From: Torpedo marmorata
Taxonomy: Eukaryota
Length of the DNA: 64,000 nucleotides
Assembly (NCBI GenBank): GCA_977017645.1
Contig: OZ360232.1
Location: forward strand, 18,848,001 to 18,912,000
Direction of reading: 5' to 3'
In this document: positions 27,385-58,265 of the stretch, one piece after another
How positions within the stretch are numbered: position 1 is the stretch's first letter
How the letters are laid out: every line of letters starts with the position of its first letter
The notes under the pieces: generated by a model
Databases searched by the model: none
What the model was told of the DNA's origin: nothing
What the model saw: only the letters and a program-made list of their open reading frames with translations
Translations under genes and position numbers: made by a program

Positions 27385-28030
27385 ACAGTACATCAGGCTA
27401 CTCTTCATCGACTACGGTTCAGCCTTCAACACCATCATTCCCTCAGTGGTGGTCAACAAGCTTCAAAACTTGGGCCTCTGCATCCCCCTCGGCAACTGGA
27501 TCCTTGACTTCCTCATCGGACGACCACAGTCAGTACGAATTGGAAACAATGTCTCCTCCTCACTGACGATCAACACAGGCGCACCTTAAGGATGCGTGCT
27601 TAGCCGATTGCTCTACTCACTATACACCCATGACTGTGTGGCTAGGAACAAATCAAATACTGTCTATAAATTTGCTGATGACAACACGGTTGTCGGCATA
27701 ATCACAGGCGACAATGAGGAAGCGTACAAGAGGGAGATAGATCAGCTAGTTGAGTGGTGTCACAACAACAACCTTGCATTCAACATTAGCAAAACCAAGG
27801 AGCTGATTGTGGATTTCAGGAGGAAATTAGGAGAACACGATCCAGTCCTCATCAAGTGGTCAGCAGTGGAGAGGGTAAAGAACTTCAAATTCCTGGGTGT
27901 CAACATCTCTGAGGATCTGTCCTGGGTCCTTCATGTCAATGCAATCACGAAAAATTCTCGCCAGCGGTTATACTTTGTGAGGAGTTTGAGGAGATTTGGT
28001 ATGTCAACAAAGACACTCGAAAATTTCAGA
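27385..28030 (+). mobile_element. Rex1/Babar RT fragment
   Basis: [27 protein letters not shown]. Confidence 0.85.
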
Positions 28031-30680
28031 CATTGTCAAAGGCCTTGCTAAAGTCCGTGTAGATTATGATTTTTATGGGACGCTGGTCTGGAAGGTTAGA
28101 ACCTTTGGGATTCAGGGCAAGTTCACCAATTGGATAGATGGTCATTGGAGGCAGAGGGTGATTGTGGAGGGTTTCTTTTTAAGATTAGAGGTGTGTGACC
28201 AGTAGTGGGTGCCACAGGGATTGGGTGCTCAGTCTCATATTGTTTTTCATACATATTATTAATTTGGATAAGAATTTAAGTAGATTGATTAATAAACAGT
28301 GCCCACTAGAATCCCTGAAAAGGCTGAGGACACTGTGATATCTGTCTCTGAGGGCGACGTCAGAACATCATTCAAGAGGGTGAACCCTCGCAAGGCGTCA
28401 GGCCCTGACGGCGTACCTGGCAGGGTACTGAAAATCTGCACCAACCAACTAGCCGGAGTGTTCACGGACATTTTCAACCTCTCATTGCGGCAATCAGAGG
28501 TTCCCACCTGCTTCAAAAGGGCATCAATCATCCCGGTACCCAAGAAGAGGGCTGCCTCAACGACTAACTTCTACTGTGATGAAATGCTTTGAGAGGCTGG
28601 TCATGGCCAGAATTAACACATACCTAAGCAAAGATCTGGACCCACTGCAATTTGCTTATCGTCACAATCGCTCCACAGCAGATGCAATATCACTGGCTCT
28701 CCACTCAGCTCTGGATCACCTCGAAAACAGCAATTCATACATACGGCTGCTCTTCATCGACTACAGCTCGGCCTTCAATACCATTATTCCCTCAGTGCTG
28801 GTCAAGAAGCTATAAACTCTAGGCCTCTGTACCCTCCTCTGCAACTGGATCCTTGACTTTCTCATTGGAAGACCACAGTCAGTATGAATTGGAAACAACG
28901 TCTCCTCCTCACTGATTATCAACACAGGCGCACCCCAAGGATGCGTGCTTAGTCCACTGCTCTACTCGTTATACACCCATGACTGTGTGGCTAGGCACAA
29001 TTCCAATGCCATCTACAAGTTTGCCGATGACACCACAGTTGTCGGCAGAATCACAAACGGCAATGAGGAAGCGTACAGGAGGGAGATAGATCAGCTCGTT
29101 GAATGGTGTAATGACAACAACCTTGAGCTCAATGTCAGCAAAACCAAGGAGATGATTGTGGACTTCAGGAGGAAGTCAGGGGAACATGACCCAGTCCTCA
29201 TCGAGGGCTCAGTAGTGGAGAGGGTCAAGAACTTCAAATTCCTGGATGTCAACATCTCCGAGGATCTGGCCTGGAGCATCCACGTTGATGCAATCACAAA
29301 GAAGGCTCGTCAGCGGCTATACTTTGTGAGGTGTCTGCGGAGATTCGGTATGTCACCGAAGACTCTCGTAAACTTCTACAGGTGTACCGTGGAGAGCATC
29401 CTGGCTGGTTGCATCACTGCCTGGTATGGAGGCGCCAACTCCCAGGACAAGAGTAAACTCCAGAGGGTTGTTAACTCGGCCTGTGACATCACAGGCACCA
29501 AACTTCACTCCATCGAGGACATCTACATGAGGCGGTGTCTTAAAAAAGTAGCCTCTATCCTCAAAGACCCCCACCACCCAGGCCATGCCCTCTTCACTCT
29601 GCTACCATCAGGAAAAAGGTACAGGAGCCTAAAGACGAGCATTCAACGGCACAAGGACAGCTACTTCCCCGCTGCCATCAGATTCCTGAATAATCAATGA
29701 ACCAAAGACACTGCCTTACTTTTCGTGCACTATTGTTTATAATTTTTTATAGTAATGTCGTAAGATGGTTAATATGAATGTTAATTGCACTATGATGCTG
29801 CCGCAAAACACCGAATTTCATGACTCGTTCCTGACAATAAATTCTGATTCTGATTCTGATTCTGATTCTGAAATTTTCAGATAGCAATACAATATAAAGT
29901 GAAGAAAGTTGACTGAGATTACAGTGATCAACTGGGAAAGTGCCAGTAGAATTGCAGATGGATTTTAACTCAGACACCTGCAAAATCATGCATTTTTGGC
30001 AAGTCAAATCAGGGCAGGACATACACAGTGAGTGGCAGAATAGAGTGTTGTCAAACAGAAAGACTGGGGGTTGGGAGGGGGACAAGTACATTGTTTTCTG
30101 AAAGTGGCAACACAGGTAGGCAGAGGGACAAAGACATAGGGCATGGTTGCCCTTCATCAGCTGTGGCATTGAGTACAAGAGTTGGGATGTCACGTTTCAG
30201 TTGTACAAAATGTTAAGTTACAAACTCTTGTCGGCAGCTCTGGATGTGATTGAGAGAGGGTGCCAAAAGCTTCGTAAGGATGTTACCCGGAATTGAAGGC
30301 TTGAGTTTTAAGGAGAGACTGGATAGGCTGGGACTATTTTATCTGCAGTGAAGGAGGCTAAGGGATGACCTTGTAAGGATTTATAAAAGTATGAGGGGCA
30401 TAGATAGGGTAGATAGTCACGTCGTTTCCCATGGTAAGGGGATCTAAAACTAGAGGACACGTTTATGGTGAGAGTGTGGTGGATATATAGAACAAGATGC
30501 CAGAGGAAGTCGTAGAGGCAGGTACAATTGCAATGTTTAAAGATATTTGGACAAGTACATGGATAGAAAGGTATGGGGAGATATGGGACAAAAGCAGGCA
30601 AATGGGACTATCTTAGATAAGCATCTTGGTTGGCAGGGATGAGTTGAGCTGAAGGGCTTGTGTTGTATTAACTCTATGTC
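28030..30680 (+). mobile_element. Decayed CR1 LINE 3' part, interrupted by Rex1 28290-29870
   Basis: CR1-like text ggcagagggtgattgtggaggg..gtgaccagtagtgggtgccacaggga on the left; ttaaaagatatttggacaagtacatggatagaaagg 3' region on the right. Confidence 0.7.
28290..29870 (+). mobile_element. Rex1/Babar LINE, 5'-truncated, with stops
   Basis: [30 protein letters not shown] and [11 protein letters not shown]; (TTCTGA)5 tail. Confidence 0.93.
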
Positions 30681-30721
30681 TATGACACCAGAATAGCAAC
30701 AAGTATATACATTGTATATTA

Positions 30722-31360
30722 AATCAGAATCAGAATCAGAATTTATTGTCTTGAACACGTCACGAAATTTGTTGTTTTGCGGCAGCATCACAGTGCTAAC
30801 ATTTATATAAACCACATTTCAAAACAAATAAAAATAGTGCAAGAAAAATAAAAAGACAAGGTGAAGTGTCTGTTGTTGATTGTTCATTCAGAAGTCTGAT
30901 AGCAGAAGGGAAGAAGCTGTCCTTGTGCCGCTGAGTGCTCGTCTTCAGGCTCCTGTATCTTTTTCCCAATGGTAGCAGAGTGAAGAGGACATGGCCTGGG
31001 TGGTGGGGGTCCTTGAGGATAGAGGCTGCTTTCTTAAGACACCGCCTTTTGTAGATGTCCTCGATGGAGTGAAGACTGGTGCCTGTGATGTCATTGGCTG
31101 AGTTAACAACCCTCTGGAGTTTTTTCCTGTTCTGAGCGTTGGCACCTCCGTACCAGACAGTGATGCAACTAGACAGAATGCTCTCCACTGTACACCTGTA
31201 GTAGTTTTCAAGAGTCCTTGGTGACATACCAAACCTCCTCAAACTCCTCATAAAGTACAGCTGCTGGTGAGCCTTCTTCTTGATTGCATCGACATGGAAG
31301 CTCCAGGACAGAGATGTTGAACCCCAGGAATTTGAAGTTCTTGACCCTCTCCACTGTACA
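30722..31360 (-). mobile_element. Rex1/Babar LINE 3' fragment
   Basis: (AATCAG)n tail; [24 protein letters not shown]. Confidence 0.9.
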
Positions 31361-31672
31361 CAGGACATTTTTTTGAGAATGAGCCAAGTTCAGCATAAGC
31401 CCTGCAACTTGTAATGCGCTTAATTGTACAATAAATTTCATAAAGTTCTTAGCTTGTTTCATACATTTGAACAGGAGATAGGGCAATCACATTCACAATG
31501 GACATTCCATTAATTATAAAAAGACAGTACTCCAAATATATGATACCACTGGCAGCTTTACTGTACCTCTGTGGCTCAAAGTCCATTTCAAATGATCATG
31601 TTTTCCTGTATTCCAGTGATATTGCCAAAGTTTAAAAATTACTAATAATTATAATGTTATACATTAGGATGA

Positions 31673-31920: not shown

Positions 31921-32106
31921 AACAATTAAATTAATAGAACAATCTATTTATAGCCATCATTAAAGTTAATATAAAGCAGCAATAAAACAGAAGGATACAA
32001 ACTGAGCCCTCACATTCTCAGATAATTATTTACATTAACCTTATACAGGCACAGAAACCAAAATGATTATCATCAGTACAGTTATGTCAGAAGTTTTATT
32101 TCGTGC

Positions 32107-33087
32107 TGTTATGGACCATGACTGACCACTTGGACTGCGGACGGTCAGCAGGAAGGATGAAGTCTTTTGGAGTACACACTGGGACCAGGTACTGAAAGAG
32201 TTAACTTGCCCAGGACTTGCTGTACTCAGAAAGAGAGAGACACCAGAGAGAGAGAGAGACAGGCTGTGGAAAAGATACTTTGTTGCACTTTTTGCAAAAG
32301 CAGGTGCAAACCTCTGCAAAAAGCATTCAGATTCAGTTGTTGTTTTGGAGTTGAAAAGGCTGGAGAACACAGCAAAATCCAGGCTTGTGCATCCCAGGGG
32401 AAAAGGCCTCCTGTATCAGCAAAATCCTGAGTTAAAACAACTTTTGTGAAGAACAGGCATGAGATCAGTGAGACCGGCTGTGAGATTCAAGTATACGCTT
32501 CAATCCAAAACCAATTTGGAATCACAATCCTCGTGTATCTACCAAAAGGGAAAGTCATCAGAGAAGAAAAGCAGGCCAAGCATTCGTAAGCTTAAACAGT
32601 CATTGTTTCTCTCTCCAATGTTCATTAAGAAGTCCTTCTTGCCAGCACACAGAGCTGAATTTGGACCCTGAACATAGAGAGTGAATTTTTGTGGACTGTA
32701 TTTTTGGGACTGACTTATTTTATGACCGACCTGGGGGTTTTGGGGAAGGTTTTCCATTTTTACATGAGGGTTGGACACAGNNNNNNNNNNNNNNNNNNNN
32801 NNNNNNNNNNNNNNNNNNNNNNNNNNNNNNNNNNNNNNNNNNNNNNNNNNNNNNNNNNNNNNNNNNNNNNNNNNNNNNNNNNNNNNNNNNNNNNNNNNNN
32901 NNNNNNNNNNNNNNNNNNNNNNNNNNNNNNNNNNNNNNNNNNNNNNNNNNNNNNNNNNTGTTTATAGACGTTTATAGTGGGGTTAATTGTTGTGAAATGA
33001 TATGTTTAATTGTCTTTAATAAATATAAATTTCAATTTTACCCCTTTTGCAATGTGTCTTCTGTCGTTGCTGGTTTGAATTTGTAAC
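32107..33087 (+). mobile_element. Gmr1-family LTR spanning an assembly gap (N 32781-32958)
   Basis: Family 5' end TGTTATGGACC and 3' end ..TTTGTAAC; flanks GTGC / CTGC (imperfect TSD). Confidence 0.85.
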
Positions 33088-33766
33088 CTGCTGCTCAAAA
33101 TCCATTTTCTCCTCAAACACATGCAGTTCAATCTGTTTAACAAGACCACACATGGATATTCTGCATATGTTGTACAGCTTGCTGCTTTCTGGAAGTTATT
33201 ACACATGAGAATGTTGCTCTTAGCAAGATTAAGTGATTCCAGAATAAACTTGTGGCCGGATGTCATTCCATGCTCAAGTTATTTCAGGGAAAAGATGGCT
33301 CATTAAAGAACAATCCTACTCTTCTCACTAATAATTTGGAATTTTTTATTTGTTGGAAACTATCTCAAAAGCCAATGGCAAAATATTCTTAAAAGCCAAT
33401 GCTGACCATCACTTAGTCCATCAATCATTGAGTCATGTTCAAGTTCAAATTAATTATCGGAGTACAGTATATACATGACATCACATACAACCCTTAGATT
33501 CATTTTCTGCTGGCCAATGAGAATTTCTACTTATCAGTAGTGTGAACTGCACGCAAGGAAAATACACATATACAAAAGAGAGAAATTTAAAAAAAGAAAG
33601 AAATGTAAACAAACTGTGCAATACAGAAATAAAATTAATATTCAGTAATAAATAATGTTGTAAGACTCCTTAAACGCATCTCCGATTGAGTCTTTTGTTT
33701 CGGAGTCTGATGGTGGAGGGGTAGCAACTCTACCTGAGCCTGGTGGTATGAGTCTTGTGGCATCTA

Positions 33767-36700
33767 TGATAGGCCTATCAATAATCACTCAAAAGACTAT
33801 GAGTGGAAACGAACCATAGGCTTTTATTATCATTAAACACAGCTACAGTCGACCTGCAGATCTGATCCCGGACTGTGGGCGGGACGGTGGCACAATGGCC
33901 TTTATTCAGGTGAGGAAGGGGGAGGGATTACCGCGACACCCAAGGGAGGGGGAGGAGACACCGGGACAGACCGCAAGACATACTCATACTACACAATATA
34001 CCTAAACAGTGGTTTACCACATTCACCCCTCCTTTTAAAAAGAGTCCAGCGGGGTGACGTGACCACAGTGACTATTTTACAGAAACAGATATTTACATTC
34101 CATTTTTTTTTTTTTTTTTACAGGTCAAGGCAATCCGGTGGTCTGATTCGCCGCTGCGACCTGCGCAGTCCCCGTGGTGACGGGGCGGGTTGTGGTGATG
34201 GGGGAGATGGCAGGATTGTCTGTAAGGTCACCTCCTGCCTGGCTTCTTGGGGTGTATTTGGTCCCGGCGAGGGTGCTGGGTCTGGCGTGCTGGAAGGGGG
34301 ATTGGGGAGGGGCTGCAGCAAGTGGTCTTGCCTGTCGAGGGTTTCTTCAGGTGCTCCAGCGGGCGCCAGGTCACGAATTGACACCGTGTCCTCTCGCCCA
34401 TCAGGGAAGACCACGTAGGCATACTGCGGGTTAGCGTGCGCTAACTGCACCCTCTGGACCGTCAGCTCATATTTGCTGCTCCGAAGGTGGTTGCGGAGCA
34501 GCACTGGTCCCGGGGACGTCAGCCAGGCAGGTAGGGTGGTTCCGGTATTCGACTTCCCGGGGAAGGAGAAAAGTCGTTTGTGAGGGGTTGCATTTGTGGA
34601 CGTGCACAGCAGGGACCGGATAGAGTGAAGGGCTTCGGGGAGGACATCTTGCCAGCGGGAGACCGGCAGTCCCCTGGACTTGAGAGCCAGGAGCGCGGCC
34701 TTCCAGACAGTGGCGTTCTCCCTTTCCACCTGTCCATTTCCCCGGGGGTTGTACCCTGTGGTCCTACTAGTGGCGATGCCTCGGGCCAGCAGATACTGTC
34801 GCAGCTCCTCACTCATAAAAGCTGATCCCCGATCGCTATGTATATAGTTCGGGAAGCCAAATAGCGTAAATACCTGGCGAAGAGCTTTTATGGTTGAGGT
34901 AGCCGAAGTGTCGGGGCAGGGGATGGCAAAGGGGAACCGCGAGTACTCATCAATAATGTTCAGAAAATACACATTGCGGTTCGTGGAGGGAAGGGGACCC
35001 TTGAAGTCAATGCTGAGACGTTCAAAAGGGCGAGTGGCTTTGACCAGCTGTGCCTTGTCGGGGCGGTAGAACTGAGGTTTGCACTCCGCGCAAACCCGAC
35101 AACTGCTGATCATTGTCCTGACCTCTTCCAGGGAGTATGGCAGGTTCCATGACTTCACGAAGTGAAAGAGCCTGGTAACTCCTGGGTGGCAAAGGTCGTC
35201 ATGTAGGGCGTGTAACCGGTCGATCTGCGCGCTGGCGCAAGCTCCCCGGGATAGAGCATCGGAGGGCTCATTGAGCTTCCCGGGCCGGTAAAGTATGTCG
35301 TAATTGTAGGTGGAGAGTTCTATTCTCCACCTCCTGATCTTGTCATTTTTGATCTTACCCCGCTGCTGATTGTTGAACATAAATGCCACAGAGCGTTGGT
35401 ATGTCAGCAGGGTAAAATGCTTACCGGCGAGATAGTGCCTCCAGTGCCTGATGGCTTCCACTATGGCCTGGGCTTCCTTCTCCACCGCGGAGTGCCGAAT
35501 TTCGGGGCCTTGGAGGGTCCGTGAGAAAAACACCACCGGCCTTCCCGCCTGGTTGAGGGTAGCAGCCAGCGCGAAGTCCGATGCGTCGCTCTCTACCTGA
35601 AAAGGTGTCTCTTCATCCACCGCATGCGTTGTTGCTCGTGCAATGTCCCCTTTTATAAGGTCAAACGCCTTACGTGCCTCCGAAGTGAGGGGAAATGCGG
35701 TGGATTTCACAAGGGATCGGGCCTTATCAGCATAATTGGGAACCCACTGTGCATAGTATGAGAAGAACCCGAGGCATCGTTTAAGGGCTTTGGGGGTGGA
35801 GGGAAGTGGAAGTTCCAGCAGGGGCCGCATGCGATCGGGGTCGGGTCCAATAACCCCGTTCTCTACCACATACCCCAAAATGGCGAGGCGAGTGGTACCA
35901 AACACGCATTTGTCTTTATTATACGTGAGGTTTAATGCTTTGGCCGCCTGCAGGAACCTCTGGAGGTTGTTGTCGTGGTCCGGACGATCATGACCACAGA
36001 TGGTAATGTCGTCCAGGTATGGGAAAGTGGTCTTGAGTTTATAGTGATCCACAATCCTGTCCATCTCCCGCTGGAATACTGACACACCATTTGTGACCCC
36101 GAAAGGGACGTGCTGGAAATGGAACAGCCTGCCATCCGCCTCGAACGCAGTGTATGGACGGTCCTCCCTTCGGATAGGGAGCTGATGGTATGCAGATTTT
36201 AGGTCTATCGTTGAGAATAACCTATACTGAGCAATTTTATTCACTATATCCGCTATTCGTGGTAGCGGATATGCGTCCAGCTGCGTGAATCGGTTGATGG
36301 TTTGGCTGTAGTCCACCACCATCCTACTCTTGGCCCCTTTTACTACGACTACCTGGGCTCTCCAGGGACTATTACTTCTCTCAATAATCCCCTCCTGTAA
36401 TAATCGCTGCACCTCCGTCTTGATAAACGCTCTGTCCCCAGCACTGTATCGCCTGCTCTTGGTTGCCACCGGCTTACAGTCAGGGGTCAGGTTGGCGAAT
36501 AACGACGGGGGCGAGATCTTAAGGGTGGAGAGACCACAGGTAGTCTGAGGCGTGTTGTTCAGGAACTGGTGGTTCGCTACAGTGATCGCAGGGTGGGGAC
36601 CGTCATATCGCATCGTGACACTCCGTAAGTGGCTCTGAAAATCAAGACCCAGTAATACCAGCGCACATAAACGATTCATAATAAATAAGGAGAATTGCCG

Positions 36701-38283
36701 ATACTCTGTCCCTTGTACCACAATGTTCACCACACAAGCCCCCCGGATGTCTGTTGTGTGTGACCCGGACGCCATGGCCACCCTCTGGCTTACCGGTATG
36801 GTAGTCAGGCCACAGCGCTGAACAGTGTCGGGGTGAATAAAACTCTCCGTGCTGCCAGTATCAAATAGACAAGTTGTCTTGTGCCCCTCCACCAGGATGT
36901 CCATCATGGATCGCGACAGCTGGTGGGGAACAAACTGGTCGAGGGTGACCGAAGCTGGGGTCGAGATGTAGTCGTCTTGATCCGCAGTTGTTAAAGATGG
37001 CCGCTCCCATGGGTTGCAGATGTCGCTGCTGCTCACGCTGCAAGATGGCGGCGGTAGAAGTGCCGGAAGTACCGATGTAGGGCTATAAGATGGCGGCGCC
37101 GGAAGTGCCAGCATCAAAGATGGCCACCTCCACTCCTCACATGAGGTCGACGCCGGAAGTGACAGCAGGTAAGATGGCCGCTCCCGCATCTCGCACGCGG
37201 CGCTGCTCGGACCCGCGCGCGACTTAGAGCGGCAGGCCTTCGCATAATGGCCTTTCTTGCCGCAGCTGGAGCAAGTCGCGTCGCGGGCCGGGCAGCGTTT
37301 CCTTTGGTGCTTATCGAGCCCGCAGAAGTAGCACTTCTCGGGCTCGCGGTTAACTGCTGCGGCGGTGAGGATAGCGGCGGTAGCGATCGGCTCGTGCGAA
37401 ACGGCGGCGGCAGTCAAATCGCTGGCAGGGTTGGGGGACGGGGCTGACCACGCGGCATGCTGGAGGTCGCGCGCCTGCATGGCGTCCGAGTTCCGCAGCG
37501 CGGCCTCCAGCGTGTGTGCCATTGAAACAGCAGTACAGAGGTCCAGGTCGGCGTGCTCCAGCAGCCGCTGGTGCACGTATACCGACCTGATCCCCATGAT
37601 GAACATGTCCCTCTCCAGCAATTCGGCATGTTCCTCTGCAGTCAGCGCCTTACAGTCGCACGCTCGTACCAGCGACTGTATGTCTCTGACAAACTCCACG
37701 ATCGACTCCCCGGCCCGCTGTTTTCGCGTTGAGAGTCAATACCTTGCGTAGACCGCGTTAACAGGCGTAACGTAGATTCTCTTCAGCGCATCCATCGCCT
37801 CCGTGTACGTTTTACAGTCCCGAACCGTCGAGAATAACCGAGGGCTTACCCTGGACACGAGGACCCTCGGTTTCTGCTCCTCGCTTTCCGCTTTGATCGT
37901 CATCATAAAGGACTCAAGACAGCGTAGCCAGTGTTCAAAAGAGTTACCAGCATCAGGAGCTAGATGGTCGATGTCCAGTCGGTCCGGTCTTAGAGCGCTC
38001 TCCATCAGATTTCAAATGATAATAAAATTGATAGGCCTATCAATAATCACTCAAAAGACTATGAGTGGAAACGAACCATAGGCTTTTATTATCATTAAAC
38101 ACAGCTACAGTCGACCTGCAGATCTGATCCCGGACTGTGGGCGGGACGGTGGCACAATGGCCTTTATTCAGGTGAGGAAGGGGGAGGGATTACCGGGACA
38201 CCCAAGGGAGGGGGAGGAGACACCGGGACAGACCGCAGGACATACTCATACTACACAATATACCTAAACAGTGGTTTACCACA
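33767..38283 (-). mobile_element. Full-length Ty3/gypsy LTR retrotransposon, recent insertion
   Basis: 255-bp LTRs (33767-34021 and 38029-38283) differing at 2 sites by eye; 5-bp TSD ATCTA; PPT AAAAGGAGGGGTGAA next to the 3' LTR. Confidence 0.97.
34118..38005 (-). pseudogene. Single gag-pol ORF (gag-2xCCHC-PR-RT-RH-IN) with one in-frame TGA at 37738-37736
   Basis: ORFs 38005-37736 and 37699-34118 are in the same frame (ARY*LSTRKQRAGESIVEF). Motifs: LFDTGS, YLDD, ESDASD..EKE, HHCC, IDFKG/SDRG/VERE. Confidence 0.93.
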
Positions 38284-39453
38284 ATCTATACCGCTTTCCT
38301 GGTGGCAGCAACAAGAACAGAGCATGTCCTGGGTGGTGTGGAATCTTGACGATTGCTGCTGCTCTCAGAAGGCAGCGTTCCATGTAGATTTTCTCGATGG
38401 TGGGAGAAGTTTTGCCTGTGATGTACTGGGCGTTGTCCATTACCTTTTGCAGGGCTTGTCACTTAGAGGTATTGGTGCCCCTACACCATGCTCTGACGTA
38501 ATCAGTCAGCAGACTTTCTACTACACATCTGTAGAAGTTTGTCAAGGTTTACGATGTCATAGCAAACCTCCACAAACTCCTGAGGAATAGAGGGACTGAT
38601 ATGCTATCTTCACAATGACATTAGATATTTCGATCCAGGAAGGGTCCTCTGAGATAGTGACTCCCAAGAATTTAAATTTTCTCATCCTCTCCACCTTTGA
38701 TCCCCCAAGATTACAGGACTGTACATCTCTGGTTTTCCCTTCCTAAAATCCACAATTAGTTCCTTGGTTTTGGCGATGTTGAGTGAGAGGTTGTTAGTAG
38801 ACCAATTCGCCAAGTTTTAAATTTTCCTCTTGTATGCTGACTCATCAGCCCACTACTATGATATTGTCAGCAAATTTGTAAATGGTGTTGTCGTACAAAG
38901 CCACGCCGTTGTAGGTGTAAAGCGCATAGAGCAGGGGGGCTAAGTTAGCAGCCCAGTGGTGCTCTGGTGCTGATGGAGATTGTGGAAGAGATGTTCTTGC
39001 CAATCTGCACTAATTGTGGTCTGGAGGTGAGGAAATCCAGGATCCAATTACATAGTGGGGTATTTAGGCCCAGGTCTTGGAGTTTGCTGATAAGTTTTGA
39101 AGTGATGATGGTATTGAATGCCAAACTGTAGTCAATAAAGGGCATCCTGATGTATGCATCTTTGCTGTCCAGATGTTCCAATGTTTTGTGTAGAGCTATT
39201 GATGGCATCTGCCGTAGACCTGTTGCTGCTGTAGGCAAATTGTAATGGATTCATGTTGTCGTCCATCATAGTCTATCAAAATGGTCATTCTTTACATTAA
39301 AATCTCCCAAATAGTACATTAATCCCTCATAACTTAGTTCAGTCAAACTTATAAAAAGCTATTGTAGTTGACCTGAAGTTGGTCGGTCCAGCAGAACCAA
39401 ATGGGTAAGTCGAGTCATCATCCTAATAATGTACAAGACATTGCTGGGATAAC

Positions 39454-50802: not shown

Positions 50803-52377
50803 TATTAGATCATCATAACTATGAATGGGAATATTAAAAAGCCATGACCTGAAACCGCCAAATGTAATTTCCTGATCATATTGTTGATGGAGCAGTAGAA
50901 TGGATGACCTGAGCAGTAGACCAATGATATTCTTTAAAAAGTCTAAGATATGTAGATGTATTCTTTAATTTTTCAAGTGGATCCATCTAACAAGAATCAT
51001 GACGATGCTTAAGCTTCAAATATCTTTTGAATAAACTATATATTCATGAACCATACAGGTTTGCTAGAGCTGTTGGGGAGGGTTTAAACTAGTTTGGCAG
51101 GTGGGTTGGAATCAGAATGAGAATGCGGAGATTAGGGTAGAAGAACACCTAGATTTGAAGGAAGAGAGGAATCAGAATGTTAAAGTTAATGTAGGAGAGT
51201 ATAATCAAAGGAGTGTATGTGGGGGACATTCTCTCAAGTGTATATATTTCAATGCAAGAAGCATCAGTGAAACCATCAGTGAAACTTGGTTGCAGGAGGG
51301 GCATGATTGGCAGCTAAATATTCCAGGATTCCGTTGTTTTAGCCGTGATAGAACAGGGGGGATAAAAGGTGGAGGAGTCGCATTGCTTGTTAGAGAAAGC
51401 ATTACAGCGGTGCTATGGCAGGATAGATTGGAGGGCTCATCCAGTGAGGCTATTTGGGTGGAATTGAGGAATGGGAAAGGCATGAAAACACTAATGGGAG
51501 TGTATTATAGACCACCAAATGGGCAGAGGGAATTAGAGGAGCAAATTTGTATGGAGATAGCATATATGTGTAATAAACATAAGGTGGTGATTAGAGGAGA
51601 TTTTAACTTTCCACACATTGACTGGGACGCCCATACTGTAATAGGGCTGGATGGGTTGGAGTTTGTCAAATGTGTTCAGGAAAGTTTTCTAAATCAATAC
51701 ATTGAAGAACCGACTAGAGAGGGGCAGTATTGGATCTCCTGTTTGGGAATGAGATAGGTCAGGTGACAGAGGTTTGTGTTGGGGAACACTTTGGCTCTAA
51801 TGATCATAATACTATTAGTTTTAGGTTGATAATAGAGAAGGATGGGGCTGGGCCTAAGGTTGAGATTCTTGATTGGAATAACGCAAATTTCGAGGAGATG
51901 AGAAAGGATTTAGAGGGTGTGGATTGGGATAATTTATTTTCAGGGAAGGATATAACAGATAAATGGAGGATATTCAAATGGGAAATTTTGAGAGTACAGA
52001 GTCGGTTCGTCCCTGTGAGGATTAAAGGAAGAGTTAGAAAATATAGGGAGCTTTGGTTTTCAAAGGATATTGGGAATTTGGTTCAGAGGAAGAGGGATGT
52101 GTACAACAGGTATAGACAGCAGGGAATAGATGAGGTCCTTGAGGAATATAAGGAGTGTAAAAAAAAAATCTTAAGAAAGAAATTAGAAAGGCTAAAAGGA
52201 GATAAGAGGATGCTTTGGCAGGCAAGGTAAAAATAAATCCAAAGGGTTTCTACAGGTACATTAAAAGTAAAAGAATAGTGAGGGATAAAATTGGGCCCAT
52301 TGAGGATCAGACGGGTAGGCTATGTGAGAAGTCAGAAGAGAAGGGGGAAATTTTAAATGATTTTTTTTCTTCAGTAT

Positions 52378-55300
52378 TGTTATGGACCATGACTGACCAT
52401 TTGGACTGCGGACGGTCAGCAGAAAGGATGAAGTCTTTTGGAGTACACACTGGGACCAGGTACTGAAAGAGTTAACTTGCCAAGGACTTGGTGAACCCAG
52501 AGAGAGAGAGTCCAGAGAGAGACAGGCTGTGGAAAAGATAATTTGTTGCACTTTTGCAAAAGCAGGTGCAAACCTCTGCAAAAAGCATTCAGATTCAGTG
52601 GTTGTTTGCAGTTGCAAAGGCTGGAGAACACAGCAAAATCCAGGCTTGTGCATCCCAGGGGAAAAGGCTGGGAGAATAGCACATGCCCTCCTGTATCAGC
52701 AAAATACTGAGTTAAAACAACTTTTGTGAAGAACATGCGTGAGATCTGCAAGACCGGCTGTGAGATCCAAGTACACGCCTCAATCAGTGGTATACTAATT
52801 TGAAGTCACAATCCTCGTGTATCTACCAAAAGAGAAAGTCATTGGAGAAGAAAAGCAGGCCATGCATTCGTAAGCTTAAACAGTCATTGTTTCTCTCTCC
52901 AACGTTCATTAAGAAGTCCTTCTTGCCAGCAAGCAGAGCTGAATTTGGACCCTGAACGTAGAGAATGAAATTTTGTGGACTGTATTTTTGGGACTGACTT
53001 ATTTTATGACTGACCTGGGTGTTTTGGGGAAGGTTTTCCACTTTTACATGAGGGTTGGGCACAGACTGTAATGGTCTGGGCTTTACACACACACACACAC
53101 ACTCTCTTTAGATAAGAATAGTGTTTATAGACGTTTATAGTGGGGTTAATTGTTGTGAAATTATATGTTTAATTGTCTTTAATAAATATAAATTTCAATT
53201 TTACCCCTTTTGCATTGCGTCTTCTGTTGTTGCTGGTTTGAATTTTTAACAAATTGGGGGCTCGTCCTAGGATTTGAATCAAGATCCATCTTGGGAAATT
53301 GAAGGAATCCCAGTCTGGTTTAAGACATTCCTTTTGTAAAGCTAATTAAAAGCGAGTGTGTGTGTAACGAAAAACCAGCAACAATGGATGTAGAATATTT
53401 TTTGCAATCACCTGAACCTGATACTTTACAAAAGGCTAAAAAGGAACAGTTAGTGGCAAAAGCAACAGAGTTGGGCATTGCTTCTGTAAAACCATCAATG
53501 AAAAAGGCAGAGATTGGGAGAAAAATTGTCAAATACTATATAAAAGGAAAAAAGTTTGAGGAGAGCGTGTTAGAGCAGTTTCCCCAAGGGTAAACCTTCT
53601 CAACACATACAGTTGGAACTAAAGAAATTGGAATTGGAACAAAAGAAATTAGACAGGGAATTGGAACAAAAGAGTTTAGACTTGGAGGTAGCCAGGGAAC
53701 AAAAGAAATTAGACAGGGAATTGGAACAAAAAAGATTAGACTTGGAGGCAGCCAGAGAATGAAAAAGATTAGACAGAGAGAGAGGAGAACATTAGGCAAT
53801 ATGAGCTGGAAAAGATTAAGTTGGAAAATGAGAGGAGACAAGAAGAGCACCAAGATCAAATTCGTCATCCTGTTGAGAGGTTTTTGGCCAGTAGAGAAGT
53901 TAGGTTGGTTCCTCCATTTGAGTAGGTGGAAATAGATATTTCAACATTTTGAGAAGGTGGCTGTGAAATTAAAATGGCCACAAGACCAATGGTCTCTTAT
54001 GTTACAAAGTGTAATTAAAGGAAAAGCTCAGCAAGCTTATTCTATTCTTACCACGGAGCAAGATGCTGATTATGAAACGGTGAAAAAGGCCATACTCCAG
54101 GCTTATGAGTTATTTCCACAGGCTTATAAACAGAAATTTAAAAATTTAAAAAGATCAGCAACCCAACCTTACACAGAGTTTGCCTATGAAAAGGTTGTGT
54201 GTTTTGACCGGTGGTGCACATCCAAGGCGGTAAACAATGATTACAATCAATTGAGAGAATTGATAATAATTGAGGAGATAAAAAGGTGTGTTTCTGAGGA
54301 TATTAAGACATACATAGATGAAAAGGAGGTGAAAACTTGGCAAAATTCAGCTAAGTTAACAGATGAATATGCTTTAACCCACAAGCCTAAGTGGACGTCA
54401 GGCAGAATTTTCCAAAAGGGCACTGTGGATAATCCCAAGCAAGTGGAAAGTAAATTTGGAAGTGATGTTAAGGAAAGAGACGAAGGGAAGTGGAAAAGGG
54501 AAAACCCTTTGGGTCCCATTTGCCACTACTGTAGGAAGGCTGGTCATATGCCAGCAAGCTGTCCAGTGTTGAAAAAGAAGAGAGAAAAGGATGCAACACC
54601 TAATGCTTGAATTCAGAGTGAGAAGAGGCATAACACCCAGGAAGGAGAAAAATTTGCTGACAAAGTTACAGATGTATTTAAACCTTTTGTGACTGATGGT
54701 TTTGTTTCAGTTAAGGCAGGATCAAAGCAAGTTCCAGTGAAAATCTTACGAGATACTGGAGCTGCTCAGTCACTTGTGTTAGATAGTATCTTGGAATTTT
54801 GTGAAGTCACTGACACCGGTGAAATGAATTTAATTAAAAGAATTGGGGGTGATGTTGAGTCCATTCCTTTGCACAAAATAATGTTGAACTCAGCCTTGGT
54901 GGAAGGACCTGTTATAATAGGAGTGAGATCAGAGTTGCCAGTGGAAGGAGTCTCACTGTTGCTTGGCAATGACTTAGCTGAGGGTAAAGTAGTTCCTGCA
55001 GTGCGAATGACCACTAAGCCAGTCATTGATAAGTCAGAGAAGGACTCTGATATTTATCCGGCATGTGCCATAACCAGGGCCATGTCTAAGAAAAATGTCA
55101 CTGCAGAGAAGGCAGTGGAAAATAAATTGGTGAAAGAAAAAGTCGGTGATAATCAAAAACACCTGGAAAAGGTTGAGCAATCTCCTGTGTTACACCGATC
55201 AACTGATAAGACACCTAAAGGCACAGATTTGTCACTATCCCGACAGGAGCTAATAGCAAGGCAAAAGGACGATCCTGATCTTGCTGAGGTGAGGGATAAG

Positions 55301-58085
55301 GTTCTCTCTGAAGAGGAGATTAAGAACGTGCCAGTGGGTTATTATGAAAAAGATGGGGTGTTGATGAGAAAGTGGAGACCATGTGATGTTCCTGCCTGTG
55401 AAGAATGGGCAGTAGTGCAGAAGGTAGTGATCCCTAAAGTATATAGGGACAAAATAATAACTTTGGCTCATAGCACACCCTTAGGTGGTCACCTTGGGGT
55501 GAAGAAAACTATACTGAAGATCATGAAACAATTTTATTGGCCCAGTTTGAGAAGGGAGGTTGTAAGCTTTTGCCGGGCCTGTCACACTTGTCAGGTGGTG
55601 GGTAAACCTAATCAGGGTCCCCCGGTGGCACCCTTGCAACCTATCTCTGCTTTCAGTGAGCCTTTCTCGAGAGTAATTGTGGACTGTGTTGGCCCATTGC
55701 CCAAAACCAAAGCGGGGAATGAATATTTGTTAACAATTTTGTGTGCAGCCACCAGATTTCCAGAGGCCATTCCTCTGAGAAACATTAAAGCAAACGTAAA
55801 GGCTATGGTAAAGTTTTTCACCTTGGTAGGTTTGCCAAGGGAAATTCAATCAGATCAGGGCAGTAATTTCATGTCAGGCGTATTCCAACAAGTGGTTGAT
55901 CGACTGGGAGTTAAACAGATTGTATCCTCTGCGTACCATCCAGAAAGTCAAGGGGCCTTGGAGAGGTTCCATTCGACTTTAAAAAACATGATTAGAACCT
56001 ACTGTTGTGAGGAGGAAAAGGATTGGGATGAGGGGGTTCATTTGTTGTTATTTGCAGCGAGGGAGTCTGTCCAAGAATCACTTGGTTTTAGTCCATTCGA
56101 GTTAGTTTTCGGACATGAGGTGAGAGGTCCTTTAACGTTATTAAAAGAACAGTGGATTAATAGTGATGTGCATTTAAATCTGTTAGACTATGTTTCCAAA
56201 TTTAAGGATCGGTTGCATAGGGCTTGTGAGATGACAAGGAGTCTTTAAAGGCCACTCAACAGAGAATGAAGGTTTGGTATGATCGAAAGGCCAAGATGAG
56301 AACTTTTAAACCTGGTGAGAACGTATTAGTTCTGTTTCCCATCCATTCAAATCCTCTTAGGGCTAGATTTTCAGGACCCTATAGAGTTAAGGCAAAACTT
56401 AATGAGGTCACCTATGTCATAGAAACACCTAATCGCAGACGAGACACACAGGTCTGTCACGTGAATATGATTAAGCCATATTTTGAACAGGTGCCGCACA
56501 AAGTGACTGAACATTTACCAGAGCGGGGTAAGGAGGAGACAGATAAAACCAGTTTCAGAGAGGGTCATGGGACTGTTAATTCTCTGGGTTATGTAGTAGA
56601 ACAGACGCAGTTGGCGCCAGTAGAGGCAAAGGTTGTGTCTATTTCCGAGTTCCCTGTTCCAACTGGTAAGAAAACTCTGAGGAGGTTCCTGGGAATGATT
56701 GGCTACTAGCGCAAGTTTTGTAAAAACTTTGCAGATCTTGCGCTTCCTCTCATAAATTTTTTCTTAGAAAGGGAGAAAAATTTGTATGGTCGACAGGTTG
56801 TCAGGAATCATTTGTCAAATTGAAAGCCATGTTATGCCACCAACCTGTGCTTAAATCACCTAATTTAGAACAGTTGTTTTCTTTAGCTGTGGATGCCAGC
56901 GATGAAGCTGTGGGCACGGTGCTATTGCAGAGGAAGAACAAAGAGGACATTGACCATCCAGTATCCTACTTCTCAAAGAAGTTCAATGATCATCAAAGGA
57001 ATTATTCAACCATAGAAAAAGAGTTGTTAGGTCTTGTGTTGGCTCTACAACACTTTGATGTGTATATCTGTACAGCTCAAAAACTACTCATAGTGTATAC
57101 TGACCATAATCCATTGGTTTTTCTTTGTAAAATGAAAAATAAGAATCGACAGTTGTTGAATTGGAGTCTAATTTCGCAAGAATATGATTTGATAATAGTA
57201 CATATAAAAGGGAGAGATAATGTAATCGCTGATTGTCTTTCTAGATGCTAAACTTTATAAATGAAAATAGTTCATATTTTGTGTTTGTGGATGAACATTG
57301 TGGGTTTTGTTTATATTGTAAAACCTCAATTTCCAAAATTTTGTTCTTGCAGATCAAAATTTTCTTTGTGGGTGGGAGGTGTTATGGACCATGACTGACC
57401 ATTTGGACTGCGGACGGTCAGCAGGAAGGATGAAGTATTTTGGAGTACACACTGGGACCAGGTTCTGAAAGAGTTAATTTGCCCAGGACTTGGTGTACCC
57501 AGAGAGAGAGAGACCAGAGAGAGAGACAGGCTGTGGAAAATATACTATGTTGCACTTTTTCAAAAGCAGGTGCAAACCTCTGCAAAAAGCATTCAGATTC
57601 AGTGGTTGTTTTCAATTGCAAAGGCTGGAGAACACAGAAAAATCCAAGCTTGTGCATCCCAGGGGAAAAGGCTGGGAGAATAGCACATGGCCTCCTGTAT
57701 CAGCAAAATACTGAGTTAAAACAACTTTTGTGAAGAACAGGCGTGAGATCAGCGAGACCGGCTGTGAGATCCAAGTACACGCCTCAATCAGTGGTATACT
57801 GATTTGGAGTCGCAATCCTCGTGTATCTACCAAAAGGGAAAGTCATCAGAGAAGAAAAGCAGGCCAAGCATTCGTAAGTTTAAACAGTCATTGTTTCTCT
57901 CTCCAACTTTCATTAAGAAGTCCTTCTTGCCAGCACACAGAGCTGAAATTGGACCCTGAACATAGAGAATGAATTTTTGTGGACTGTATTTTTGGGACTG
58001 ACTTATTTTATGACTGACTTGGTGGTTTTGGGGAAGGTTTTCCATTTTTACATGAGGGTTGGGCACAGACTATAATGGTCTGGGC

Positions 58086-58119
<34 letters not shown>

Positions 58120-58265
58120 CTTTAGATAAGAATAGTGTTTATAGACATTTATAGTGGGGTTAATTGTTGTGAAATGATATGTTTAATTGTCTTTAATAAA
58201 TATAAATTTCAATTTTACCCCTTTTGCATTGCGTCTTCTGTCGTTGCTGGTTTGAATTTGTAACA
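52378..58265 (+). mobile_element. Gmr1-like Ty3/gypsy provirus (gag-PR-IN-[RT core deleted]-RH), defective
   Basis: LTRs 52378-53251 and 57380-58265; TSD GTAT; SCAN-like capsid and CHYC..H..C; LRDTGA; integrase HHCC/VDCVG/SDQG/ERFH placed before the RT thumb (RRFLGMIGY) and RNase H (VDASD..EKE..TDH); PPT at 57370-79. Confidence 0.95.
53255..53267 (+). promoter_or_regulatory. Primer binding site, tRNA-Pro
   Basis: TGGGGGCTCGTCC 3 nt after the LTR; canonical tRNA-Pro PBS is TGGGGGCTCGTCCGGGAT. Confidence 0.92.

Follow-up and report, generated by a model that had tools for sequence, protein, structure and literature searches.

The minus strand of the analysed stretch of the Torpedo marmorata genome (64,000 nucleotides; hereafter the window) carries a full-length Ty3/gypsy LTR retrotransposon of 4517 bp (33767–38283), bounded by an LTR pair and a target duplication, whose 5' LTR is not followed by a tRNA primer-binding site. 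This raises the question of what primes its reverse transcription. Tf1/sushi chromoviruses self-prime by pairing the 5' end of their RNA with the primer-binding site, and in Tf1 the primer is formed by the first 11 nt of the RNA. To our knowledge, yeast Tf1 is the only element in which self-priming has been proven; for Tf1 relatives and a few plant lineages it is predicted. Comparison of the leader of the window element with its own LTR, with related families, and with aberrant insertions makes it likely that this element would also prime with a 5' piece of its own RNA, ending in the 5' copy of an LTR segment (P) that pairs with the leader, and not with a tRNA. The duplex and its register are conserved, and the proposed priming would be a variation on an established mechanism, for which the literature searched contained no earlier report from this group.

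The window element and its leader-LTR duplex

The two LTRs, each 255 bp long with TG...CA ends, are located at 38029–38283 (5' LTR, running from 38283 to 38029) and 33767–34021 (3' LTR) and differ at two positions. They are flanked by identical 5-bp target site duplications at 38284–38288 and 33762–33766. A polypurine tract with a 2-nt AA spacer precedes the 3' LTR (34022–34036), and a single gag-pol frame (34118–38005, with the gag ATG at 38005) codes for gag, protease, RT, RNase H, and integrase, the last four of which were found by a Pfam search of the window protein. The TG...CA LTRs, the target duplication, the polypurine tract, and the order protease-RT-RNase H-integrase identify the element as a member of Ty3/gypsy, and the best relative of its RT among solved structures is the RT of Ty3 (E 2e-50). 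The two-CCHC gag described in the initial annotation corresponds to two zinc-knuckle-like motifs that can be read from the letters (the Pfam model zf-CCHC reaches no better than E 0.09), and, as also stated there for the chromodomain, neither a chromodomain nor an SH3_Tf2-1 domain was found when the window protein was searched with Pfam.

The frame of the window copy contains an in-frame stop at gag codon 90 (37736–37738), which is common to three others (L019, L023, and L030) among the 30 closest copies, and 13 of these 30 copies have no stop within the first 518 codons. Since several copies share the codon-90 stop, copying in trans from a defective template is probable. In the 6.2-Gb host genome, 40/40 scored matches to a 201-bp probe were near-identical, and 1651 LTR-leader junctions belong to the wider family of the window element, which is a young copy of a high-copy family. 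Its insertion site is a decayed LINE fragment (38284–39250), and several fragments of LINE RT occur in the window (at this site and at 27389–31389).

In agreement with the initial description of a young gypsy element without a tRNA site, the LTR end is followed by a one-base spacer (A; 38028), a 13-mer (38015–38027), and the gag ATG, with no TGG. The 13-mer is a non-tRNA primer-binding site and the exact reverse complement of P (38084–38096), which contains an AATAAA (38090–38085) that is likely the poly(A) signal; a second AATAAA is found in the 5' LTR at 38168. Folding of the LTR together with the leader, which had been proposed as a first check, extended this pairing by 6 bp (38083–38078 with 38040–38035) across a 7-nt bulge holding the LTR terminus (38034–38028), and an inner stem (38067–38062/38053–38048) formed within the rest of R and U5 (38035–38083). 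The perfect inverted repeat, its extension, the bulge, the inner stem, and the inclusion of the AATAAA in the paired LTR segment had all been read from the letters of this one copy and were recovered unchanged. The fold has a free energy of −23.6 kcal/mol (z −3.6), and shuffled sequences reached equal stability in 1/200 cases. A perfect 13-nt complement was obtained by chance in 0/5000 shuffles of the whole LTR, in 1/5000 shuffles of its AT-rich last 80 nt, and in 0/5000 shuffles of the leader.

A mechanism that would make use of this duplex can be followed along the 5' LTR. A putative TATA-like promoter element, the upstream AATAAAGG (38161–38168), is assigned from its spacing, and transcription would start about 30 nt past it, near 38137, at an initiator-like sequence (38136–38138). 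The paired segment probably lies about 40–50 nt inside the RNA and not at its extreme 5' end. Upstream of it, the predicted 5' primer fragment contains a small hairpin in the fold (38105–38121), and family C, one of the further host families described below, has a hairpin much like it. The 13-nt P, roughly 40 nt inside the RNA, would pair with the leader, and cleavage by RNase H would follow, as in Tf1, at the end of the duplex (between 38084 and 38083), beside the short stem that comes directly after it. The capped fragment of 50–65 nt would then prime minus-strand DNA over U5 and the remaining 20–30 nt (approximately) of R, the spacer A being the first base that RT would copy. Plus-strand synthesis would normally stop once the paired part of the primer has been copied. 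In the second transfer that follows, LTR variants would replace the sequence of the primer site. Plus-strand copying beyond the paired part would leave inverted arms.

Conservation of the duplex between and within families

Sixty-seven loci came from metagenome contigs; 46 of them were examined for LTRs and 21 were left out. With near-identical loci reduced to one per family, the junction between LTR and leader could be read or inferred in 14 metagenome families. A motif search of the host genome that fixed only 3–4 paired bases added families B, C, and D. It returned 12,588 matches, compared to 3,557 with a control pattern. Thirty motif loci were read: all 19 with gag downstream pair over 13–14 positions with 0–2 mismatches, and 10 of the 11 without gag downstream have a run of 3–6 bp only.

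With the LTR ends fixed by two diverging LTR copies in only 7/18 families and inferred in the others, the best duplex starts one base after the LTR end and ends 30–65 nt inside the LTR in 17 of the 18 families. The letters differ between these 17 families while the pairing is kept, which answers the call for compensatory changes made in the initial annotation. Shuffled sequences reached the observed duplex score in 0/100 cases in 15 families and once in one family. For family D, a single decayed copy with two mismatches, the score was reached by 16/100 shuffles, and for the one failing family (L079), in which the LTR parts present on the contig contain no duplex, by 97/100. Leaders scored at least 13 with their own LTR in 13/18 families, versus 1/306 comparisons with foreign LTRs. 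The first 3–4 bases after P are paired into a short stem in 10 of the 12 families that were folded. P ends in TAAA-like letters across families, with a canonical AATAAA or ATTAAA in only about half of them. As negative control, gypsy families with a TGG site from the same genome, which we take to be Pro-like and Mag/Ser-like, were inspected; their leaders start with TGG and show self-pairing of at most 9 nt. Most outgroup loci had no readable LTR end, and the positive control consists of one chromodomain-bearing element (L350), which has a 14-nt self-match at offset 3.

Duplex length ranges from 11 to 22 bp between families. At five family C loci (L242, L243, L247, L248, and L256) the primer site is lengthened by 4–8 nt of LTR complement, followed by a return to the leader or to gag, and extensions of this kind may explain the range. 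Two near-identical copies in one metagenome assembly (L098 and L100, 3670–3735) differ by a compensatory double change in the duplex. The LTRs of L074 and L075 contain a pyrimidine tract and CAG upstream of P, a splice-acceptor-like motif through which a shorter or rebuilt primer could arise in the hosts concerned.

Within the window family, 30/30 fetched copies are perfectly paired, and three variants of P occur (in 16, 10, and 4 copies). For family C, a free position was tallied by hand in the first 100 of 1855 junctions, giving 82 Watson-Crick pairs, 6 G-U pairs, and 12 mismatches, and the first 30 junctions agreed with a script. Because such within-family counts are inflated by subfamily structure, they show a few compensatory events and not many independent ones. 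An extra pairing of the 5' fragment with the leader near the ATG is present in family A and not evident in family B.

Read-through insertions and alternative explanations

In LTR elements, plus-strand DNA passes the end of U5 only by copying the primer. An LTR end joined to an LTR-derived complement is therefore what a self-primer predicts, and such junctions exist in the host genome. The first case (L172, identical to L208; 1317–1749) is a 433-bp palindrome flanked by a 5-bp duplication and consists of a full LTR, one A, and then the reverse complement of the LTR from P back to the first base of the LTR. Junction patterns matched 14 loci in family A, 58 in family B, and 82 in family C (154 in total), and the reversed control patterns matched none in any of them. 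The loci read numbered 74 (14/14 in family A, 30/58 in B, and 30/82 in C); two were dropped before the counts, one from each of the two classes described below, namely L199, in which the arm is broken by a 10-nt duplication and continues to the polypurine tract, and L262, which has an ordinary leader. An assembly artefact was rejected as explanation based on the fixed internal junction, the 1–5 differences between arms, and the presence of target duplications in two cases.

A full LTR followed by a partial arm was observed at 21 loci, with arms of 18–22 nt (6 loci), 40–74 nt (14), and 109 nt (1). Beyond the arm, 17 of these 21 loci continue with internal sequence in plus sense, entered at many different positions, which is the pattern expected if second-strand transfer went astray after copying of a primer of limited length; the short arms could stem from ordinary template switching at any inverted repeat. 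In family A the three arms end 52, 52, and 54 nt from the end of P, consistent with the start site predicted for the window element. AATAAAGG is located 84–95 nt upstream of the P end in families A, B, and C and, if it acts as a TATA-like box, would place the start 54–65 nt upstream of the P end, near the central arm lengths. Five of the 15 long forward arms overrun this predicted start (65, 68, and 109 nt in family B; 73 and 74 nt in family C), so that the start may be dispersed or mis-predicted, or another template may have been used for some arms. Three arm ends lie in microhomology with the start of gag, and three locus pairs may share an ancestor. The ends of the insertions suggest a cut at the end of the duplex and a primer of about 50–65 nt, not of 11 nt as in Tf1.

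Priming by the 3' copy of P is an improbable alternative. It would need no extra jump to account for the arms that reach the LTR start (45/74), at least five of which go on into the polypurine tract and pol, whereas under priming by the 5' copy such arms require a further template jump or else recombination with an LTR already resident in the genome. Furthermore, the fold leaves the 3' copy of P unpaired. However, the forward arms are bounded, with 20/21 ending no more than 74 nt from the P end, and the opposite class of loci is not, as its extents past P range from 26 to 173 nt (Mann-Whitney p 0.002 versus forward arms; 0.006 for values of at least 30). Moreover, the distance from the 5' copy to the primer site is 57 nt, and the two pair in a local fold; a cut at the 3' copy would remove from the same RNA the R on which strand transfer depends.

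The opposite class also fits priming by the 5' copy of P. Its junctions cluster at the 3' end of P (18/45 within −5 to +15; p 4e-8 versus uniform), where a cut would terminate minus-strand strong-stop DNA. Inverted internal sequence is attached in 32/46, the arrangement that jumps onto the 3' end of such strong-stop DNA would produce. Both parts are full at six loci, of which two (L172/L208 and L253) have target duplications. These two are mini-insertions of about 430–440 bp, in which one LTR is followed by part of an LTR in inverted orientation; they have a U3 at either end and lack all coding sequence, and such palindromic mini-insertions with a 5-bp target duplication are apparently integrase products. 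Hand counts in family C, made to see if the copy in read-through products follows the LTR or the old leader, gave 0/24 versus 6/36 discordant cases in one haplotype and 4/55 versus 7/59 in the other and do not decide between the two.

A similarly small chance is given to the explanation that the hairpin is kept only because it hides the 5' poly(A) signal, or controls translation of gag, that another, unseen primer is used, and that the inverted insertions arose from template switching at the inverted repeat. Inverted repeats do promote template switches, and in most families the last letters of P form a hexamer resembling a poly(A) signal. Masking is also predicted by the fold, in which the AATAAA has an unpaired probability of 0.007 in the 5' context versus 0.91 in the 3' context. 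Yet masking alone would not require a duplex that starts exactly one base past the LTR end, as it does in all but one of the families, and several families have no canonical hexamer in P; in addition, no other primer site is visible, and the junctions cluster at the duplex end. It is plausible from the modelled folds that the duplex proposed for self-priming also hides the 5' poly(A) signal and that the signal is free in the 3' LTR.

Priming at the site by a host tRNA, a tRNA half, or another small RNA is largely refuted and very unlikely: the majority of gypsy elements are tRNA-primed, and copia lineages that prime with tRNA halves are known (PMC6317226), but the tRNA comparison proposed in the initial annotation, made with a set of 27 host sequences for 7 amino acids and none mitochondrial, found complements of at most 6–7 nt to the leaders of families A–C, and the four families of this one genome have four different leaders that each match their own LTR, with leader variants tracking LTR variants copy by copy. 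The proposal of self-priming, made originally from the window copy, is thus supported by the compensatory changes between and within families, the absence of a match among the tRNAs tested, and the read-through insertions.

Placement of the clade and comparison with known systems

The clade is abundant in the host genome (thousands of copies), and its protein matches span cnidarians, insects, and cartilaginous fish. Among named proteins, those of rays and catsharks are the closest (74–84% over RT-RH), followed by cnidarian, nematode, and insect proteins and many animal-like contigs (55–65%). Quick, unrooted RT-RH trees, which contained no named Tf1, sushi, or Mag references and do not give the sister group, were used for placement. 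In the first tree (34 of 99 rows left out) the window element belonged to a clade of 34 rows with an SH-aLRT of 100 and a long stem, apart from 10 chromodomain-bearing rows. The repeat tree (25 more rows left out; 40 rows, 23 of them from the clade) again gave an SH-aLRT of 100. The clade branch was also separate from four TGG rows of the same genome, which are presumably Mag-like judging from their primer site. The idea that the element may self-prime independently of the Tf1/sushi group held insofar as it falls outside the sampled chromodomain-bearing elements, but independence itself does not follow, the tree being unrooted. As far as these RT-RH alignments can tell, the trees exclude nesting among the sampled chromoviruses; shared ancestry of self-priming with Tf1/sushi is possible, as is an identity of the clade with the Cigr-1 or MolGy clade.

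A chromodomain search for tree references gave 15 matches. Matches to SH3_Tf2-1 were rejected as chromoviruses, as they represent a tRNA-type lineage with LTRs of about 860 bp. The gypsy lineage with LTRs of about 860 bp and a TGG site is very abundant (L140–L154), several of its copies matching just the RNase H half of the RT-RH query, and the window repeats D2, D4, and D6 (of families D2–D10; 32094–33087, 52365–53251, and 57367–58265) resemble, by eye, solo LTRs of this lineage. Intact gypsy frames for RT/RNase H, in some cases with a chromodomain, are present in many of the 88 matches in a prokaryotic collection (L300–L379), and these gypsy matches are probably eukaryotic contamination of metagenome bins. 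Scans of viral contigs with the RT or the alignment yielded no relative, and a search of the ESM Atlas yielded generic RT/RNase H clusters only. A search for a sushi-type gag found no match in the host genome or in anything else searched, which is not evidence of absence.

In the literature outside subscription journals, GyDB, and Repbase, a scope that also took in PMC3601003, PMC6934838, PMC4600332, PMC3670739, and PMC8556966, self-priming was found only for Tf1/sushi, Tcn1, and TAR copia elements, and there was no report of self-priming in this clade, of a long self-primer, or of palindromic insertions. The supplements searched for PMC6238403 list names without motifs of this clade, and those of bioRxiv 10.1101/2023.10.26.564294 list primer sites of sponge and echinoderm gypsy elements and may bear on novelty.

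The evidence is evenly balanced on a wider reading, according to which a broad animal gypsy clade outside the chromoviruses would use a long, capped primer of about 50–65 nt that ends in its own poly(A) signal, one duplex would both make the primer and block premature polyadenylation, and the tail left over from the primer would cause plus-strand DNA to snap back or to jump, yielding palindromic mini-elements with two U3 ends that integrase inserts. If true, this would be a second self-priming animal gypsy clade, making tRNA-free priming a common strategy of LTR elements, and fossil insertions in an assembly would by themselves reveal, for any LTR element lacking a tRNA site, its primer and the positions of the cut and of the transcription start. 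A self-priming clade also bears on whether this mode of priming is ancestral or has evolved repeatedly, and would account for the label “PBS-less” that results from tRNA-based annotation, while read-through insertions offer a route to primer identity that requires nothing but sequence.

Among known systems, self-priming has been predicted from LTR-leader complementarity alone for Tcn1 (gypsy) and for TAR, Houba, and Osr-1 (copia, plants; PMC6317226). These elements differ from the clade in lineage and host, and the available part of the same source mentions neither read-through nor an overlap with the poly(A) signal. The Mag lineage (A, B, and C clades) and Cigr-1 resemble the window element in their short LTRs, a length of about 4.5 kb, one ORF, a 5-bp target duplication, and two zinc knuckles (partly after PMC3286476). 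In contrast to the clade, Mag elements carry primer sites for tRNA-Leu/Ser/Arg (PMC3286476); the corresponding TGG site was not found in the window element or its clade, and in the trees the Mag-like elements of this genome, with their TGG sites, branch apart from the clade.

Tf1 and Tf2 of Schizosaccharomyces pombe, Tj1, and the Tf1/sushi elements share with the clade the lack of a tRNA site and the pairing of an LTR segment with a site adjoining the LTR end. Neighbouring stems in Tf1 form a “pretzel” (PMC10085805), to which the stems of the clade can be likened, and the Tf1 primer is released by RT (PMC5341516). The ends of Tf1 cDNA are reported to keep a copy of the primer, as the read-through insertions suggest for the clade, and to recombine through it (PMC11042837). 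The clade is distinguished from Tf1/sushi by the absence of a chromodomain and of SH3_Tf2-1 from 38/38 aligned proteins and by its separate long branch, and its offset of 1 nt compares with 3 nt in the single chromodomain-bearing control. Unlike in Tf1, P ends in a poly(A)-signal-like TAAA. The insertions point to a long, capped primer ending in this signal, with a predicted length of 50–65 nt and only its 3' end paired, whereas the primer of Tf1 is formed by the first 11 nt of the RNA.
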